From an uncultured Thiotrichaceae bacterium (GTDB lineage: Bacteria > Pseudomonadota > Gammaproteobacteria > SZUA-229): a stretch of DNA of 37,837 nucleotides. Made by a program: the position numbers and the translations under genes. Location of the stretch: assembly GCA_964485705.1 (NCBI GenBank), contig CAZALW010000003.1, positions 1 through 37,837 on the forward strand, written 5' to 3'. Positions 29,856 through 37,837 of the stretch are shown here, one piece after another; the first letter of the stretch is position 1; each line of letters begins with the position of its first letter. The notes under the pieces are model-generated. The model had not been told where the DNA came from, ran no database searches, and worked only from the letters and a program-made list of their open reading frames with translations.

Positions 29856-31106
29856 TTAGTAAATATCTTTTATACGCTTTTTTCGACCAGACTCATGCCT
29901 TTCACGCAGATCAGAGTCAATATAACGATCTGTGGTGGCCATGCTGGCATGCCCGGCATCATCGCGCACATGTTCACGAGGACGAAACTTAACGTCCTCT
30001 GAGATGCCGGTGTGCCTTAACCAGTGAACAGTAGCCGTTTTTAGCTCAATAGCATCAGCTTTAAGACCGTCTTTTTTCATACGATCATATGCAGCATCAA
30101 AACATTGCTGCACGATACGTCTAATGTGCCTGGTGCTTGTGATAGAGCCTTTGCCAATAGCTTTAGATATGAGCGGTACTTGCTCACTGTATGCTGGTAA
30201 TTCTGGCAGGCCTAAATGTTTACGGTAACGTTTAAGTGCTTTAAGCATATCGTCACACACTGTTATAGAACGATTTTTATTGCCTTTACCTGTTACGTCA
30301 AACCACCAGTTATTGTCCTGATCTTTTCTAAAATCACTCATTACCGGCATGGAGCGTTCATCAGCAACTAGCTCTGAGATGCGAAGATACATGGCAAATA
30401 AGCAGTTCATAATAAATAAGGTGCGCTCATGTTCAGGGTCACTAGCAGCCATTAACTCGGCTGTTTCCAACACATAATCCCACTGCAGCGTACTGATGCG
30501 TCTTACAATGGGCTTCAACTGGTCTTTACGGATGAATTTACTTTTTTGTTTGATCAAAGCAACAGGATTCGATGCAACAAGATTTTCTTGAATCAGGTAT
30601 TCATAAAATGAAGATAACGCTGTAAATATACCTTTAATGGCCGCCTGAGATGGACAAAATTGATTTGCATCAGCAACTATATGGTTGCTATGTTCTGATT
30701 TTGAAACGGATACCACAAAGGGTCGCCATTCATCGTTGGCTGATCGTTTACCATTTTTATTCTTAAATCGCGCAACATTTTTTATACCTATCCAGGCTTT
30801 CGGCGGGTCGAAACAGAAACGTATAAAATCTTCAATGTGTTCGCGTTTCAGATTTAATAAAGAAGTTTGTTCGATACGCCAGCACCACTGAAGCAATCTT
30901 TCCAAATCACGTCGGTAGCTATTAAAAGTTGCGGTGCTGCCATTATAGCTATACAGAAATTTAAGGGCGAATTCCAGATCAGTGTCAGCACCAATTATTC
31001 TGGTGTCCAAATATGACTCAGCAGAAAAGTGCTTTTGCTTAAATGGATTACCGATATGGTTGAGATTATCAATTATCGCTATAGGTGGTATTCGTATCGG
31101 GTTCAT
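29856..31106 (-). CDS. tyrosine recombinase / integrase
   Basis: The catalytic motifs are YLRISEL (Arg), HWLRHTG (H-x-x-R-H) and ATTDRYI (Tyr). Confidence 0.9.
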   Translation of the reverse strand: MNPIRIPPIAIIDNLNHIGNPFKQKHFSAESYLDTRIIGADTDLEFALKFLYSYNGSTATFNSYRRDLERLLQWCWRIEQTSLLNLKREHIEDFIRFCFDPPKAWIGIKNVARFKNKNGKRSANDEWRPFVVSVSKSEHSNHIVADANQFCPSQAAIKGIFTALSSFYEYLIQENLVASNPVALIKQKSKFIRKDQLKPIVRRISTLQWDYVLETAELMAASDPEHERTLFIMNCLFAMYLRISELVADERSMPVMSDFRKDQDNNWWFDVTGKGNKNRSITVCDDMLKALKRYRKHLGLPELPAYSEQVPLISKAIGKGSITSTRHIRRIVQQCFDAAYDRMKKDGLKADAIELKTATVHWLRHTGISEDVKFRPREHVRDDAGHASMATTDRYIDSDLRERHESGRKKRIKDIY

Positions 31107-31266: not shown

Positions 31267-32139
31267 ATGGCTAAAGTATTTGGTATCGTATCAACCAAAG
31301 GCGGCGTAGGTAAAACATCTATCGCTGCAAATATTGGTGGCATTCTTGCCGACATGGGACAACACGTCCTGTTAATTGACGGTGATTTTCAGCAATCACT
31401 GTCGGATTGGTTTGAAATTACAGACAAAGCAGAATTCGGGCTACGGCAATTCATCACGAAGGCTCAACCAACTAACTGCATCTCAAGCACAGCAATAGAT
31501 AATCTGGACATTGTTCTGTCCGATGACCCTAGCGGCAAACTAATCGACTGGTTTCGCGCTTCGACCAATAATGTCTACTATTTGCTTGCGTCAATAAAGA
31601 GACTCTCTGATTACTACGATTACGTGATTATTGATTCTCAAGGTGCGCGTGGCATCCTCCAGGAAAGCATTATTCTTGCTAGTGATTCATTGATTTGCCC
31701 ATTAGTGCCAAACGTGATGGAGTCACGCGAGTTTATTCGCGGCACGATCCAGATGCTCAAATCACTGGAGCCACCTGCCGGTGTGTCCGTGCCAGTCCCT
31801 AATATCCCACCTCTATATGGTGTTATTTACAAACAGGACAGAACCAATAATTCTATCAAAATTGCGAACGCTATTCGCAAACAGTTCTATCAAGGATCCG
31901 GTGGCAAAATCAGTGTTCTGGATACCTTTGTGCCTAACTTGACTGCCTACAAGAAGGCGGTGGCTGCCGGACTGCCAGTACATCGTGTTGAGGTCACGCG
32001 ATCAGGGCCAACACCCAGCGCACACGACACCATTCTGTCGCTGGTGCATGAGCTTCTCCCGCACCTTAGTGACACCTATCCAGTCTGGGATAAAAACAAC
32101 GTCTCCCCTATTAAGAAAGCAGCCGGAGGAGAAGAATAA
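31267..32139 (+). CDS. parA: ParA/Soj partition ATPase
   Basis: It has the deviant Walker A motif STKGGVGKTS, plus LLIDGD. Confidence 0.9.
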   Translation: MAKVFGIVSTKGGVGKTSIAANIGGILADMGQHVLLIDGDFQQSLSDWFEITDKAEFGLRQFITKAQPTNCISSTAIDNLDIVLSDDPSGKLIDWFRASTNNVYYLLASIKRLSDYYDYVIIDSQGARGILQESIILASDSLICPLVPNVMESREFIRGTIQMLKSLEPPAGVSVPVPNIPPLYGVIYKQDRTNNSIKIANAIRKQFYQGSGGKISVLDTFVPNLTAYKKAVAAGLPVHRVEVTRSGPTPSAHDTILSLVHELLPHLSDTYPVWDKNNVSPIKKAAGGEE

Positions 32140-33857
32140 TGGCAAATAACAAAGGACAGATAACGGACGGCGATAATGTACTGGATTTTTTAAACCTCAA
32201 AAATACTGAGGATAAGTCTAGTTTTGATGACCCGATTACTAAGTCATCAGTACCTATTACGATAGATCAGCTGCGACCTTACGATAATAATCCACGAACC
32301 ACCAGAAACCCTAATTACGATGAAATCCGCGACATGATTGAGGCGCGTGGATTAGATAGCCCGCCAAACATCAGTCGCAGAAACCCAGATGATGAACACT
32401 ACATCATCATCGATGGCGGCAATACGCGGCTGGAAATTCTTCGAGAACTGTATGAAAAATATACAGTGCTTGCTGAACAGGCAACTTCGCTTGATGAAAA
32501 AAACAAACTGACTGAAAAAGCACAAAGCTTTTTTGCCCACAAATGTGTTTTCAAGCCATGGAAATCAGAATCCGATGCTCTGGCCGGTCACATGTGCGAG
32601 AACGAAGCACGAGGCCCGGTCAAGTTCATCGAAAAAGCCATGGCCGCGCAAAAATTCCGCGAAATCTATGCACAAGATGACAAGCAGGCGTTGATTGATG
32701 CGGGTGGAGATATTGATGAAGATTATGAATCCCCACCTTTATCCATGCGGGCGTTATCCAGACGAATGGCAAGCCAGGGCTGGAAAGTTAGTGACAGCCA
32801 CCTCACCCGCTTTAATTATGCAGTAACGGTTTTAATTGACGTGATTCCTCTGGCGTTATGGGCCGGTGCTGGTCAACCGATTGTAAGAAGCGTCCGCAAA
32901 TACAAAAAAGCCTACGAAGACTTCTGGCAACAAATTGACGCGCCAGAACCAGACAAAATAAGCGACTATTTTTTCGAACAGTTGCACGAGTTTGACAATG
33001 AAGAACTCGACTTCAAAGCCTTTATTGATTTCTTTAACCGTTATTTAGCAGACAAACTGGACATGCCGGTAATCAGCGTTTCGGCTGAAGTAAATGCGCT
33101 GCTCAACAACAAAGCAATCAACGTGCCACCAGAGCTTTTACAGCAATCACTTAATTCTTCAGATGCGGGTATGAGTGAGGCAGAAGCCATTGCCAGGCGT
33201 TATCAGGAAACCCGTAACCCTGGTGAGACAGTTAGAGACCCTGGCCCTGCTGATACGCCCTCCCCTACACCTAAACAACAACGCTCAGTCGCTCAGTCGC
33301 CAGATGTAAAACAAGATACAAACAATAATGAGCATTCGGATAACCAACAAAATGTACCAGTAGCCGGTAGCGAGCCACAAACACAGGGTTTCTTCATACC
33401 TTCAGACATTGAATCCGTCTGGCAGGGAATATTTGATCGTGCCGCTATTGTGGCCGAACAATATGATTTGATGATGACGCTTGTTGATGATGGTTCGGGC
33501 TTTAAACAGTATGCCGTCATGAACTGCATTCCCTTTAAACCAGAACGGGCAAACGAACCAAGAGAACGGCTCATTTTTGATAAATCAAAAGATGATGAGA
33601 GAGCCGCTATGTGGTGGGCAATGTCTTGCATTTCAGGCTCTTATAAAAATGAGACTATTGCTGATTTTACCGATTCAGTGTTTGCCAATATATATCAAAA
33701 CTATCTTCTTGATTTTGATCACAACATCATGGCAATGATTTTGTTTCTGGAAGAAATAACATTGATGCTGCCGGATGAAACGCAAAAGTTGTTGTATGAA
33801 TTACGATTATTAACAAAACAGTATCTGATTTTACGGCAAGGAGGTTCTCATGACTAA
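32139..33857 (+). CDS. ICE-type ParB-family protein with long C-terminal extension
   Basis: The ParB N-terminal-domain-like region is ITIDQLRPYDNNPR....IIIDGGNTRLEIL. The start overlaps the parA stop (TAATG). Size and position fit the PFGI-1-class ParB. Confidence 0.7.
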   Translation: MANNKGQITDGDNVLDFLNLKNTEDKSSFDDPITKSSVPITIDQLRPYDNNPRTTRNPNYDEIRDMIEARGLDSPPNISRRNPDDEHYIIIDGGNTRLEILRELYEKYTVLAEQATSLDEKNKLTEKAQSFFAHKCVFKPWKSESDALAGHMCENEARGPVKFIEKAMAAQKFREIYAQDDKQALIDAGGDIDEDYESPPLSMRALSRRMASQGWKVSDSHLTRFNYAVTVLIDVIPLALWAGAGQPIVRSVRKYKKAYEDFWQQIDAPEPDKISDYFFEQLHEFDNEELDFKAFIDFFNRYLADKLDMPVISVSAEVNALLNNKAINVPPELLQQSLNSSDAGMSEAEAIARRYQETRNPGETVRDPGPADTPSPTPKQQRSVAQSPDVKQDTNNNEHSDNQQNVPVAGSEPQTQGFFIPSDIESVWQGIFDRAAIVAEQYDLMMTLVDDGSGFKQYAVMNCIPFKPERANEPRERLIFDKSKDDERAAMWWAMSCISGSYKNETIADFTDSVFANIYQNYLLDFDHNIMAMILFLEEITLMLPDETQKLLYELRLLTKQYLILRQGGSHD

Positions 33858-34476
33858 CGTTGCTCATGCTCAATTTTCATATAAAAACAATTCCTTGCTC
33901 ACTGAGCTTAACCATGTCATTACACGGTTTATTATCGACCTGTATCACAACGGTGATTTTGATGCGCTGGAACAATTTGGCGTATCGAAATCAACAGCAA
34001 AAGAATTGTCGGGATTATCGATTAGCAATCATCATCGTCTAACAAAATGCCAGCAATTACTGGGCAATGTTTTTGTTGATGAGAAGCGTTTGAAGCGACT
34101 AATGCAATACATTATTAACAACGAAAACAAAGACAGTTTCATCAACCAGTTGATAAAAATGCAGGCAAGCCAATCCATGCTGGAGCGTCTGGCCGGTGTT
34201 GATCACCATGATTTCAGACAACGGCGAAATTTACTGGATCTGCCAAAGGCCGCTGCTGGTCGCCCTGCCGTACTAAACGATAAAGAAGCAATAAGGCTGA
34301 CTGAATCATGGCAACGACATGTTGATAAAGAACACGATCTCCTGCAGCGGTATTTTTATGTTGGCCTTGATACCGGTATACCGTTATCAAGGCTATGGAA
34401 TCACATGCAGTTATCTGGTTACGATTGCAACAACGTAATCAAACCTTGGACAAATAACAACCGCCAGGAAATATAA
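33850..34476 (+). CDS. STY4526/DUF2857-like ICE protein (positional call)
   Basis: It is a ~200-aa helical protein directly after the ICE parB, overlapping it by 8 nt. The family assignment rests on synteny memory only. Confidence 0.4.
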   Translation: MTNVAHAQFSYKNNSLLTELNHVITRFIIDLYHNGDFDALEQFGVSKSTAKELSGLSISNHHRLTKCQQLLGNVFVDEKRLKRLMQYIINNENKDSFINQLIKMQASQSMLERLAGVDHHDFRQRRNLLDLPKAAAGRPAVLNDKEAIRLTESWQRHVDKEHDLLQRYFYVGLDTGIPLSRLWNHMQLSGYDCNNVIKPWTNNNRQEI

Positions 34477-34478
34477 AT

Positions 34479-35066
34479 ATGGGTCATTTATTTAAAAAAT
34501 TGATTTGTAAATTTAAAGGTCATGCGTATGCAGCTCCTTATGATGACCTTGAGCCAACACCAGATAATAATGATCTGGAGCGTATAAATAACTATACAAA
34601 TTTAGCAATAACAGAACCGAGCAATTTTGATTCAAGCCACCCTGACCTGGCGCGGATTTTTTTAGGTTGGCTACAACAAAATTTACGCACTGGAAAATTA
34701 AAGATAAACCGGCGTGACGCTATGGTTCATATTGTGGCAGAAGGCGTTTTACTGGTATCACCAAAAATTTTTAAGGCTTTTGTTAATGATTATGATGCAT
34801 TACGTGACGATAGTTTCGCATTCAAACAGATACAAAATAAATTAGAAAAGTTAATGAGAAAAAATAATCTTGGAATACGCACAGGTGATGGCGGGAACAT
34901 CCATACCTACCTGGTACAAGGGCCAAAGCGTAAAACAACACTGAATGGCTGGTTATTGCCACTATCTGTTATTTATCAAGTGCCAAACATTAACTATGCA
35001 TTGATTAATACTACAGGCATTTGGAAGTCAGGTAAAAAATCAAGAATCAACAGAAAAAAACAATGA
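34479..35066 (+). CDS. hypothetical ICE protein, possibly TraI C-terminal-like DNA-binding domain
   Basis: MVHIVAEGVLLVSPKIFKAF resembles what I recall of the putative nickase/helicase TraI C-terminal domain. This is weak. Confidence 0.35.
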   Translation: MGHLFKKLICKFKGHAYAAPYDDLEPTPDNNDLERINNYTNLAITEPSNFDSSHPDLARIFLGWLQQNLRTGKLKINRRDAMVHIVAEGVLLVSPKIFKAFVNDYDALRDDSFAFKQIQNKLEKLMRKNNLGIRTGDGGNIHTYLVQGPKRKTTLNGWLLPLSVIYQVPNINYALINTTGIWKSGKKSRINRKKQ

Positions 35067-35257
35067 GTACGAAGATTACAAAAAGAAAAGAATTGAGTGG
35101 GGTGGCCCCGTCTGGCAAGCCATCAATGCAATACCAACTGCTAAATGTAGCAGCACACTGGTTACGCGTAACCAGAGGAGTGTCAGGCATCCAGCCTGAA
35201 CGTAGTTCGGGGTCTGATGCATACACAGGCCTAAGGTGCTTCGTTTATGCGTATTGA
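35063..35257 (+). CDS. 64-aa ORF of doubtful coding status (ATGA-coupled to the upstream gene)
   Basis: The ATGA overlap suggests coupling. However, the sequence is unusually GC-rich, has no protein-like pattern, and overlaps a structured segment. Confidence 0.25.
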   Translation: MSTKITKRKELSGVAPSGKPSMQYQLLNVAAHWLRVTRGVSGIQPERSSGSDAYTGLRCFVYAY

Positions 35258-35396: not shown

Positions 35397-36431
35397 ATGA
35401 CAAATACAACAACACAACTTCGTTATCCTGATGTATTCAACGATAATAAACGTCTAAAACTATACGCAAATAAAATACTTGCCGATCTTGAATCAAAAGA
35501 CCGGCAATATGTTTTGGATTACCTGTCAGATAGATTAAGAGCCACAAAACAAGATGGTTTGCCGCCTATTACTAACGTAACGGCTTATCTTGACTGGATC
35601 GTAAAAACCACTAAAACGGCAAAAAACAACACATCCTTTGGGATTAGAGATAAGGCTGTTTTTCGTTCTACTGAGCTTTCCAGAACAATTACTCAAATAG
35701 CGGCTGATTTATTGCCTCATCGCGTTACAAATTTATCAACACTGGATGATAAGCAGTTTGATACTAAATTTGAAAAACTAAGCGAACAAATACTTGTTTT
35801 ACACAATAAAACTTTTGAAAAAATCAGTGCTATTGGAGAAAAAGAGAAAATTTCAATAACATTAGCTCATAAAGAAGCTAGTGAAAACAAAAAAATAGCT
35901 GACAAAGAAGAAAGAATGCAGTCTGGCAATAATGCGTTTGATCGCCTCCATGAGAAATACCCCGGTATGTCATCAGAAGACGATTATTTTTTTGAAGCAT
36001 TTGTAACTGATTATGTAGATGCCATTCTTGCTGTAACACGGCAAATAAGCAGTGAACAGGGTCGTGACGTTATATTAAAATATGCACAGGATATAGAATC
36101 ACTGGTTAAAGATTATATGGAAATGCTTTGCTCTAACAATGATGCCAGTGGGCAATGGAAAGACACAGTTAAATATATTGAAGATGCTTTTAACGATTCA
36201 GATAATAATGAATATCGCATCCCGCGCAGAATGGCTACGCGAAATCGGTATGTGGTTGCATTGTTTTTTTATTGTAAAAATAAATCGCTGATAGACAAAA
36301 ATAGCGAAATATTAACCAGTGTTTTTGGATATGATCGAGGCTATATCGACAAACTAACTTCAAGTTTATTACCAATCATTGAAAAACAGATTGACAAAAA
36401 ACTTGAAAATATAGCACTAAGCAATGCTTAA
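35397..36431 (+). CDS. hypothetical helical ICE protein (344 aa)
   Basis: It has a good RBS (AGGAGA 7 nt upstream) and protein-like composition. It shares an internal domain with the convergent gene at 36450..36758. Confidence 0.6.
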   Translation: MTNTTTQLRYPDVFNDNKRLKLYANKILADLESKDRQYVLDYLSDRLRATKQDGLPPITNVTAYLDWIVKTTKTAKNNTSFGIRDKAVFRSTELSRTITQIAADLLPHRVTNLSTLDDKQFDTKFEKLSEQILVLHNKTFEKISAIGEKEKISITLAHKEASENKKIADKEERMQSGNNAFDRLHEKYPGMSSEDDYFFEAFVTDYVDAILAVTRQISSEQGRDVILKYAQDIESLVKDYMEMLCSNNDASGQWKDTVKYIEDAFNDSDNNEYRIPRRMATRNRYVVALFFYCKNKSLIDKNSEILTSVFGYDRGYIDKLTSSLLPIIEKQIDKKLENIALSNA

Positions 36432-36449: not shown

Positions 36450-36758
36450 TTATCCTGAGCGTTTATTCTCACCCAGGATGTATCCTTGTAAGCGTTCGAC
36501 GTTACCATATAGCTGCGCCTCTAAATCAAACGCAGGATCAATTTCAGCTACTATTTTACGATGCACAAGCATTAAATGGTTTGTTAATTTTTGCAATTCA
36601 AACTCAAAAGCATTGTTTGACAATGTTGGTAGATTTTCTACCCGATGCGGTAACAAAGTAGCTGCTATTTGCATCGCTTGCAAAGATGTTCTCTCAATAA
36701 ATTCTTTTTTCCGAATAGCCTCAATCTCAGCTATTTCTTTTTCAGTTTTTTCAGTCAT
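36450..36758 (-). CDS. hypothetical 102-aa protein, paralogous to the central domain of the 344-aa neighbour
   Basis: I chose the MTEKTEKE start (CAT at 36756..36758) because GGAGAG lies 5 nt upstream. QIAATLLPHRVENLPTL..F...LQKL...LMLVHRK aligns with QIAADLLPHRVTNLSTL..F...FEKL...ILVLHNK. Confidence 0.6.
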   Translation of the reverse strand: MTEKTEKEIAEIEAIRKKEFIERTSLQAMQIAATLLPHRVENLPTLSNNAFEFELQKLTNHLMLVHRKIVAEIDPAFDLEAQLYGNVERLQGYILGENKRSG

Positions 36759-36862
36759 GACGACTCTCCTCATTAGGTTTGTGATGTTTAGGAAATTGTT
36801 GTGCGGGAGTCTTCGAAAACTTAACCCGCACAACGAGGATAGCACACACGAGGAGAGTCGTC
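36759..36862. promoter_or_regulatory. nested inverted repeats in the divergent promoter/leader region
   Basis: The outer repeat is 13 bp and perfect: GACGACTCTCCTC (36759..36771) with GAGGAGAGTCGTC (36850..36862). The inner repeat is 10 bp: GTTGTGCGGG (36798..36807) with CCCGCACAAC (36825..36834). Confidence 0.6.
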
Positions 36863-36964: not shown

Positions 36965-37837
36965 ATGAACGAACCAGACAGCCGACTCATTCACCTGAAA
37001 CAACACATTAGTCATGCGGCAGATGAGTTAGCCAGATCATCGAATGCCGATGATGGTCTGGGTTCGCTTATTTATTTAGGCAATCATCACGACTCAGTAC
37101 CAAGAGAACTAATCATTGATCCGCATCTGGAATCTGGTGAATTTCATACCTGGTTGCTAATGAAAATACAGTTCACTGATCCAGCGGCAGTGACATCAAT
37201 CCCAAGTCAAAGCCAATTAGCGAAATACTTAAAATGCTCAAGACCAGTTGTTAGTCGGCATTTACAAGTATTACGTGCATTGCGCTGGATAACCCTGTGT
37301 AAAACTGTAAGAGGTTCTAATGGTCAATACAAGGGTTGTGTATATGCACAGCATGACAAGCCATTAAATCTTACTGATACTTTGTTTCTGGATCAGCACT
37401 ATATTGAGTTTTTAGAATCACCAAACAAAGCCGATTCATTCAAGCGACTACGCACCGTCAAACAAGCCGTTCTAATGCACATGGACTATCAGGTAGTAAC
37501 AGACACCGCTTTTGTTGCGCCAACCGTCTTAGAGGCTGCCACAAGCCACCTACTAAACGAGAATAAAACAGCATTACAAACTAGCCGTGCTTGCCCTGAG
37601 CAACGAATTGAAGATATTCCTGATGAGATTTATTTTGAATCAGCGATAACAACGGATAAACAAATAGACGAATCTGAAAAACACCATGTTAAAGTTATGC
37701 ACCGTGTTAATAATATTAACACGGTGAAAAGAGCTAAAAACAACCATGTTAATATTATTAACATGGACAAAAGCCCGTCACAGCGCGATTCTCACCATGT
37801 TAATAATATTAACATGGTTGAAAATGATGACCGTGTT
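36965..37837 (+). CDS. STY4528-like pathogenicity-island/ICE replication protein (3' end outside window)
   Basis: The ATG has GGAG 7 nt upstream, and the frame is open to the window end (291 codons). A wHTH-like segment is SQSQLAKYLKCSRPVVSRHLQVLRALRWI. Its position relative to parA/parB matches SPI-7-type elements. Confidence 0.5.
   Translation, partial: MNEPDSRLIHLKQHISHAADELARSSNADDGLGSLIYLGNHHDSVPRELIIDPHLESGEFHTWLLMKIQFTDPAAVTSIPSQSQLAKYLKCSRPVVSRHLQVLRALRWITLCKTVRGSNGQYKGCVYAQHDKPLNLTDTLFLDQHYIEFLESPNKADSFKRLRTVKQAVLMHMDYQVVTDTAFVAPTVLEAATSHLLNENKTALQTSRACPEQRIEDIPDEIYFESAITTDKQIDESEKHHVKVMHRVNNINTVKRAKNNHVNIINMDKSPSQRDSHHVNNINMVENDDRV
37700..37818. repeat. array of perfect palindromes inside the replication-protein gene
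   Basis: Three palindromes are present. 37700..37726 is CACCGTGTTAATA-A-TATTAACACGGTG. 37744..37766 is CCATGTTAATA-T-TATTAACATGG. 37794..37818 is ACCATGTTAATA-A-TATTAACATGGT. Half-sites lie at 37683 and 37829. Confidence 0.9.

Follow-up and report, generated by a model that had tools for sequence, protein, structure and literature searches.

Integrative conjugative elements (ICEs) of the pKLC102/PAPI-1/PFGI-1/ICEHin1056/ICEclc family disseminate virulence genes as well as resistance and catabolic genes, and several of them persist as plasmid-like circles. The 'oriV' label used in this ICE family rests on sequence inspection, carried out between 2004 and 2009. For pKLC102 of P. aeruginosa C, Klockgether et al. 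reportedly gave this name in 2004 to sixteen 57-bp direct repeats, not to palindromes inside a gene. For PFGI-1, a putative oriV of ~1.1 kb, upstream of PFL_4669, was proposed from sequence alone. In its A+T-rich first half a perfect 23-bp palindrome, CTGAGTTCGGAATCCGAACTCAGT, occurs as four direct repeats; the direct repeats of its second half, also four, are 46 bp long and include an imperfect inverted repeat of 21 bp each (Mavrodi 2009, PMC2647930). A putative oriV was assigned to the same module of ICEHin1056 on similar grounds (Juhas 2007). Here we describe a related locus in a 37,837-nt stretch of DNA from an uncultured Thiotrichaceae bacterium (contig CAZALW010000003.1, positions 1 to 37,837; hereafter the window), in which three perfect palindromes lie inside a gene of the STY4528 family. 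What is new is comparative evidence for DNA-level selection on these in-gene palindromes, for their behaviour as dimer sites and for a specificity that depends on the clade.

The STY4528-family gene runs past the end of the window. It is complete in the full contig that carries the window sequence (L001; L001 position + 30,964 gives the window coordinate), where it occupies L001 6001-7332, with its stop codon at L001 7332. The gene and the palindromic units within it are listed below.

36965..37837, + strand: first 291 codons of the STY4528-family gene, a 443-codon gene that continues beyond the window end
37684..37694: degenerate unit 0, a copy at 65% identity, with a good left half-site, CCATGTTAAAG, and a decayed right arm
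37700..37726: dyad unit 1, CACCGTGTTAATA-A-TATTAACACGGTG, perfect, 13-nt arms, encoding H-RVNNINT-V
37744..37766: dyad unit 2, CCATGTTAATA-T-TATTAACATGG, perfect, 11-nt arms, encoding HVNIINM
37794..37818: dyad unit 3, ACCATGTTAATA-A-TATTAACATGGT, perfect, 12-nt arms, encoding HVNNINM
37831 onwards, cut by the window end at 37837 (L001 6867-6886): shortened unit 4, CCGTGTTAA-CT-TTAACATGG
L001 6888-6907, beyond the window: degenerate unit 5, CCGTGTTAA-CT-TTAACTCGG

A single nucleotide forms the centre of each perfect unit, with 42 and 51 bp from one centre to the next. Nowhere in the gene is the GC content lower than in the array (29-34% vs 40-49% in the flanks). An earlier reading of the window from its letters alone, the original prediction, had reported the three palindromes with these positions, arms and spacings, together with a half-site at the start of the array, and both observations hold. 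It had also reported a further copy at the window end. A unit does start there, at 37831, but L001 reveals it to be shortened and imperfect and not a full copy: its outer pentamers are separated by an 8-nt spacer instead of 11 nt, with one G-T mismatch. This short unit is orthologously kept in three relatives (L049, L050 and L003), and unit 0 is identical in L049, a relative that is 81% identical.

A chance origin of the dyads is excluded. Three palindromes with arms of at least 11 nt are observed, against 0.04 expected from 200 first-order Markov simulations of the window. The pattern CCRTGT-N11-ACAYGG, with at most one mismatch allowed, has three matches against 0.24 expected and none elsewhere in the 37.8-kb window, where no further copy of either dyad was found. 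Codon choice was addressed by synonymous recoding of residues 235-305 with the element's own codon usage. None of 100,000 recodings gave three dyads with 10-nt arms, and only 16 gave two.

The original prediction had argued that the DNA, rather than the peptide, is the selected object, and the relatives point the same way. In orthologous units of four close relatives both arms have changed in concert, so that the dyad is preserved and the peptide is not: where the window has V(GTT)..N(AAC), the homologue P0003 has V(GTA)..Y(TAC), and L003 has AAAGA/TCTTT. One 21-nt dyad of L003 is translated as HVKNLYM and, twice, as PCKESLHG within a single gene. Dyads use two reading frames in L006 and in Pectobacterium, and the four units of pKLC102 are spread over three codon phases. 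Homologues that keep the peptide and lose the dyads through synonymous changes had been named as the observation that would count against DNA-level selection; when homologues were checked, the opposite was seen. The claim that the codon phase is the same throughout fared less well. It is true of the window's three units, all of which begin at codon position 1 of ORF 36965->37837, but it fails in relatives, pKLC102 among them. The uniform phase in the window is a local accident and not a property of the element.

These comparisons drew on 47 homologous proteins, 44 genome loci and two close metagenomic relatives, with pKLC102, ICEHin1056, a Ralstonia ICEclc-like element and a P. veronii plasmid added. 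All complete homologues examined have an array, and its place is the same in each, some 650-1000 nt from the start of the ORF. The taxa in which this position is conserved are Thiotrichaceae-like metagenome-assembled genomes (MAGs), Pseudomonas, Enterobacterales, Haemophilus and Ralstonia. The window falls in a clade of uncultured Gammaproteobacteria, with the Thiotrichaceae-like MAGs as its closest genomes. The half-sites of this clade read CRTGT-N11-ACAYG, nearly always with a C before and a G after. Such units occur in all 13 scanned MAG loci with an intact ORF (13/13), about 690-1000 nt into it, and the 42- and 51-bp spacings are seen again among these loci. The close relatives L049 and L050 have three CRTGT-N11-ACAYG units each. 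Across the clade the outer pentamers are almost invariant, and the A/T-rich interior is variable and often asymmetric.

Other clades carry other half-sites at this place. In Enterobacterales and Pseudomonas the unit is GTTCGG-N3-CCGAAC, with one to four units at nt 655-880 in 31/31 complete ORFs scanned, that of pKLC102 included. ICEHin1056 has four or five copies of AGTTCC-N5-GGAACT, and the Ralstonia ICEclc-like element has two copies of CTTCGGA-W-TCCGAA. The comparison shows a half-site sequence that is clade- and element-specific, and an array that is kept whatever the frame or the encoded peptide.

A palindrome may be kept because its two arms pair with each other, or because each arm matches the same half-site. 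The two were compared with an arm-swap test on 46 units of the window clade (36 distinct), at five inner positions. A unit's own arms are complementary at 3.85/5 positions, and arms swapped within the same locus at 3.80/5 (p=0.42). When arms are swapped across loci, complementarity drops strongly (p<1e-4). The mismatches comprise 13 G-T, 11 A-C and 32 transversions, with no wobble or strand bias, and perfect units make up 9/36 of the distinct set. An asymmetric hybrid unit, CATGTAAAGA-A-TATTGACATG, was found repeatedly (L007, L008 and L014). Together, the within-locus swap and the mismatch spectrum argue for half-sites that match an element-specific consensus and would be read by a protein dimer, in keeping with the suggestion in the original prediction of sites for a dimeric protein. 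The units are very probably protein-binding dyads under DNA-level selection. The window's three perfect palindromes are units in which both half-sites are at the local optimum, CCATGTTAATA.

A second block of repeats lies beyond the window end. Right after the stop codon, L001 carries three perfect 57-bp direct repeats (L001 7336-7506, window-equivalent 38300-38470), each holding the 19-bp dyad GTGATGGCA-C-TGCCATCAC. In pKLC102 (NC_019202), 16 dyad-bearing units of 57 bp fill the ~930 bp that follow the gene (L047 7321-8250). Eight distinct dyads occur among the pKLC102 repeats. They differ in their inner bases and each stays self-complementary, own arms pairing at 8.75/9 positions vs 6.48 when swapped (p<1e-4). 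This suggests that the downstream repeat dyads are under selection for symmetry or pairing itself, unlike the in-gene dyads, which are without unit-level covariation of the downstream type. The downstream arrays of other relatives have other periods, of 36-48 bp (L007 5447-5907, L006 5440-5554 and L015 5420-5658), and that of L007 alternates two dyad types, TTGTTGGGA-C-TCCCAACAA and TTGTTGTG-CCC-CACAACAA.

The two blocks allow a direct comparison with the described elements. PFGI-1 and the element studied here both have an A+T-rich palindrome block, then tandem repeats, then a PFL_4669-family gene, and the in-gene array corresponds to the A+T-rich half of the PFGI-1 putative oriV. The PFGI-1 palindrome also lies inside STY4528-family genes of Pectobacterium, Brenneria and Pseudomonas. 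The half-sites of the two elements are unrelated (CCRTGTWAAWA here vs GAGTTCGGA in PFGI-1), and the host lineage also differs. The PFGI-1 repeats are 46 bp long with a ~21-bp inverted repeat, and those here are three repeats of 57 bp with a 19-bp dyad. The dyads here lie demonstrably within the linker-coding part of a STY4528-family gene; origin function is putative in both elements.

With pKLC102 the locus shares the order ParB-family gene, DUF2857, STY4528-family gene, repeats, PFL_4669-family gene, DUF3158 and SSB. Downstream of its four in-gene dyads, pKLC102 has tandem repeats of 57 bp, a period shared with L001, and every repeat contains a perfect 19-bp dyad. The differences are the number of repeat copies (16 vs three here) and the in-gene dyads, which in pKLC102 read GAGTTCGG-NNN-CCGAACTC and stand in three codon phases. 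The sequence traits of the bipartite region of pKLC102/PFGI-1-type ICEs (MPF_G/MOBH) recur at our locus: an A+T-rich half with several ~23-bp palindromes (three perfect and three degenerate copies), tandem 36-57-bp repeats with ~19-21-bp inverted repeats (3 x 57 bp, in L001 and outside the window), and the gene order around the STY4528- and PFL_4669-family genes. The array is a divergent variant of the already described presumed-origin repeat block of this ICE family. The window cuts this bipartite architecture in half.

The protein encoded by the gene offers a candidate binder and a place for a second code. Against NCBIfam NF040582 ('STY4528 family pathogenicity island replication protein'), the window fragment scores 128.5 bits and the full-length, identical protein P0001 (443 aa) 129.9 bits (E=2.1e-37), with a cut-off of 130 bits. 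By these scores the window protein is a clear homologue, yet a borderline, divergent member of the family. Profile matches place a winged helix-turn-helix (wHTH) at residues 76-112. An AlphaFold2 model shows an N-terminal wHTH domain, a low-confidence linker and a C-terminal helical domain. Residues 220-312 all have a predicted local distance difference test score (pLDDT) below 50, and the flanking wHTH domain is modelled confidently. The dyad array falls within residues 220-312, the linker-coding segment. This fits a linker that is weakly constrained, probably disordered and able to hold a second code.

The original prediction had also called the array candidate iterons or an origin, and the origin label is one that this ICE family already bears as a putative annotation. 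In iteron plasmids, such as those with pPS10 RepA, F RepE and R6K pi, the initiator is a wHTH protein that recognises repeated sites close to the gene encoding it. Rep dimers of these plasmids bind inverted repeats for autoregulation, and an A+T-rich region lies beside the tandem repeats. The locus resembles them in having a wHTH protein gene with repeated sites, and an A+T-rich stretch beside tandem repeats. However, the in-gene units are full palindromes within a coding sequence, 42 or 51 bp apart, and do not form the directly oriented, tandem, asymmetric ~17-22-bp repeats of an intergenic iteron origin. The tandem, iteron-like repeats are the 57-bp ones beyond the stop codon and outside the window. 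A second difference from iteron plasmids is that no Rep fold was detected: a PDB sequence search for a Rep-like fold gave nothing significant, and Pfam had nothing for the C-terminal domain. A weak match to PHROG 8102 'replication initiation protein' (E=1.7e-4) was obtained. A third is the lack of DnaA boxes nearby. A look for them downstream had been suggested, and none lies beside the dyad array or the 57-bp array in L001.

We propose that the palindromes form a cis-acting array of dyad-symmetric protein-binding sites, placed where the STY4528-family gene encodes its linker. Three to six sites, spaced ~4-5 helical turns apart, would be occupied by a dimeric DNA-binding protein that the ICE encodes. 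The most likely occupant is the wHTH protein encoded by the same gene. Binding would build a nucleoprotein complex beside the tandem 57-bp repeats after the stop codon, and both blocks together would constitute the region that controls maintenance or replication of the excised element, known in pKLC102/PFGI-1-type ICEs as the 'putative oriV'. With binding inside the gene, autoregulation would be possible as well. We put the probability of this whole mechanism, with a dimer-bound array and a 57-bp block that organise replication or maintenance control of the excised ICE, at about 0.5. A more specific version, in which a STY4528-family dimer binds operators in its own gene and the array is a functional half of the origin or copy-control region of the excised ICE, is more tentative, and we hold it to be possible rather than probable.

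If this more specific version is true, the transcription or translation of an initiator gene would be physically coupled to the occupancy of its own sites, and helix and half-site specificities would co-evolve within an arrangement that is conserved all the way from Haemophilus and Pseudomonas to uncultured sulfur-oxidiser-like Gammaproteobacteria. The region is also a clear case of protein-coding sequence with a second code, one that does not specify protein.

Several points weigh against this mechanism or against the choice of binder. In line with the gene's own wHTH protein as binder, the start of the recognition helix varies with the dyad class (SRPV with CCRTGT, SRET with GAGTTCGG, SRKL with AGTTCC and SSET with CTTCGGA), but this correspondence covers only four classes, is confounded with phylogeny and is weak. 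Naming the binder by co-variation was dropped on these grounds. Measured between their centres, the outer half-sites stand 17 bp apart, wider than in a typical MarR-type operator. The shortened unit with its 8-nt spacer fits a rigid dimer poorly, and the 11+1+11 geometry (23 bp) is exactly that of the bisS sites bound by BisD in ICEclc. DnaA boxes (TTWTNCACA) are not enriched, with four against 2.2 expected in 13.3 kb of L001. In Foldseek, the protein gave only non-significant matches to MarR/ArsR-type regulators (E of at least 0.29) and to RctB domain 1 (E=0.74), and on its modelled structure the name 'replication protein' is unsupported. The transient replication of ICEclc, as Delavat reportedly described in 2019, depends on the relaxase and oriT. 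Finally, no binding or replication experiment on any family member was found in the literature, although this absence is not fully established.

Of the alternatives, the one that survives best concerns a different protein of the same element. The genes upstream of the STY4528-family gene are the following.

29856-31106, - strand: tyrosine integrase
31267-32139: ParA, profile match
32139-33857: TIGR03764 ParB-family protein (BisD homologue), profile match
33850-34476: DUF2857 (BisC) protein, profile match
34479-35066: TraI_2_C protein, profile match

The dyads could be parS-like (bisS-type) loading sites for the ParB-like CTP clamp of the ICE, the BisD homologue. From the dyads the clamp would spread along the ICE by sliding, with the DUF2857/BisC protein as its partner in gene activation and/or partition. 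The ParA, ParB-family and DUF2857 genes lie directly upstream, as this explanation would have it. In ICEclc, the CTP clamp BisD loads on two 23-bp palindromes inside inrR and ssb (Antar et al. 2025, PMC12409273). The dyads here share this design, 11-nt arms around one central base (23 bp in all), and likewise lie inside a gene of the regulatory/replication module of the same ICE superfamily; this size is within the 16-23 bp of a parS or bisS site. The bisS sites differ in sequence, GAGCTATCCCCnGGGGATAGCTC, and they are two isolated copies, with no array in a STY4528-family gene.

The other strong palindromes in the regulatory region of L001 and pKLC102 are the downstream repeat dyads, plus a lone palindrome at 35158-35175. 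Palindrome families are few, and a clamp loader would therefore need the in-gene dyads, the downstream dyads or this lone palindrome. A closer likeness to parS is seen in the downstream dyads, for instance GTGTTTCCA-G-TGGAAACAC of pKLC102, and their tandem array is reminiscent of F sopC, which makes them the better ParB candidate. The in-gene dyads are without sequence similarity to bisS or canonical parS. The bisS pattern is absent from the 48 loci scanned, L001 among them, and the half-site CCATGTTAATA, judged by eye, resembles neither TGTTCCAC nor GAGCTATCCCC.

A site in ICEclc itself bears on the choice between the two proteins. The candidate bisS-3, CTTCGGAtTCCGAAG inside orf96323, gave no BisD foci (Antar 2025, PMC12409273), the one experimental result found for a site at the position of the array. 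In an ICEclc-like element on the Ralstonia solanacearum megaplasmid, the sequences CTTCGGATTCCGAAA and CTTCGGAATCCGAAC lie 44 bp apart (L051 6627-6685) and have the same motif as bisS-3. The gene order of L051 is alpA, parA, bisD-like, DUF2857 (bisC-like), and then a STY4528 homologue annotated 'hypothetical protein'. The Ralstonia gene after bisC is thus a STY4528 homologue that carries the bisS-3 motif twice, at the usual position of the array. By synteny, the negative ICEclc site would correspond to the array studied here. The lack of BisD foci at bisS-3, an equivalent position, speaks against BisD, the main competing binder in ICEclc, so that the wHTH protein encoded by the gene itself stays the favoured one. 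We regard loading of the BisD homologue on the in-gene dyads as unlikely.

The lone palindrome upstream, CTGGTTACGCGTAACCAG at 35158-35175, is a perfect 18-bp palindrome (9+9, no centre) in the intergenic stretch from the TraI_2_C gene to a 344-aa ORF. It has parS-like geometry and is the sole other ICE-side palindrome with arms of at least 9 nt in the window.

A second alternative is structural. The dyads would be extruded as hairpins or cruciforms in single-stranded DNA (ssDNA) or RNA. On the transferred strand they could, for example, serve as a signal for priming or for a single-strand origin; in the gene's own mRNA they could form a structure controlling how it is translated or degraded. 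An ICE is transferred as a single strand, and the region as ssDNA folds at -50 kcal/mol (z=-9.5 vs shuffled controls). Variable yet complementary flanks lengthen some arms, to 13 nt here, 18 nt in L003 and 15 nt in L006, and in unit 1 the CGTG variant is present in both arms as a matched CGTG/CACG change. Against this, the arm-swap test found that own arms pair no better than arms exchanged within the locus. G-T mismatches are not favoured over A-C (13 against 11), 32 mismatches are transversions, and three quarters of the distinct units are imperfect. Conserved units with two purine-purine stem mismatches are shared by several elements. An Rfam search returned no family at threshold, only sub-threshold miRNA-hairpin look-alikes. 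On the swap test, the mismatch spectrum and the Rfam result, the hairpin or RNA explanation is disfavoured, and we give it a slim chance compared with dimer-bound dyads.

The weakest alternative, that the peptide repeat H-V-N-N-I-N-M is selected, with the DNA symmetry arising incidentally from codon choice or from recent duplication of a unit, can point to the single codon phase of the window units and to an HVxNxxM-like peptide found again in many relatives, but it is hardly credible and was rejected, given the synonymous recoding, the other frames in which L003, L006, Pectobacterium and pKLC102 read the same dyad, the coordinated arm changes that alter the peptide, the wholly different peptides at the same place in the other clade (LSSESELS and SVRNPNR) and the low pLDDT of the segment.

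The dyad-bearing gene sits near the start of its element. Cytochrome oxidase genes stand before the integrase gene, so that no more than the first 8 kb of the ICE is inside the window. The gene order in the window and L001 matches that of pKLC102 and ICEHin1056: the STY4528-family gene comes after ParA, the ParB-like gene and DUF2857, and before a PFL_4669-family gene (TIGR03761), which in L001 lies downstream of the 57-bp repeats. By this order and its gene content, the element is classed as an ICE of the pKLC102/PFGI-1/ICEclc type. A scan of the array region for promoters and terminators gave nothing above shuffled expectation, and the lone terminator-like call, on the minus strand, coincides with dyad unit 2.

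Two ORFs between the TraI_2_C gene and the STY4528-family gene resemble parts of its product or of each other. Residues 2-85 of the 344-aa ORF (35397-36431, + strand) are 48% identical to residues 312-401 of the STY4528-family protein, in the C-terminal domain (E=2e-21). An antisense 131-aa ORF (36450-36845, - strand) resembles residues 60-143 of the 344-aa ORF (E=3e-14). These similarities point to domain duplication or shuffling around the STY4528-family gene. Nested perfect inverted repeats (36759-36771/36850-36862, 13 nt, and 36798-36807/36825-36834, 10 nt) form a long hairpin upstream of the gene, and this hairpin (L001 5795-5898) overlaps the start of the antisense ORF.

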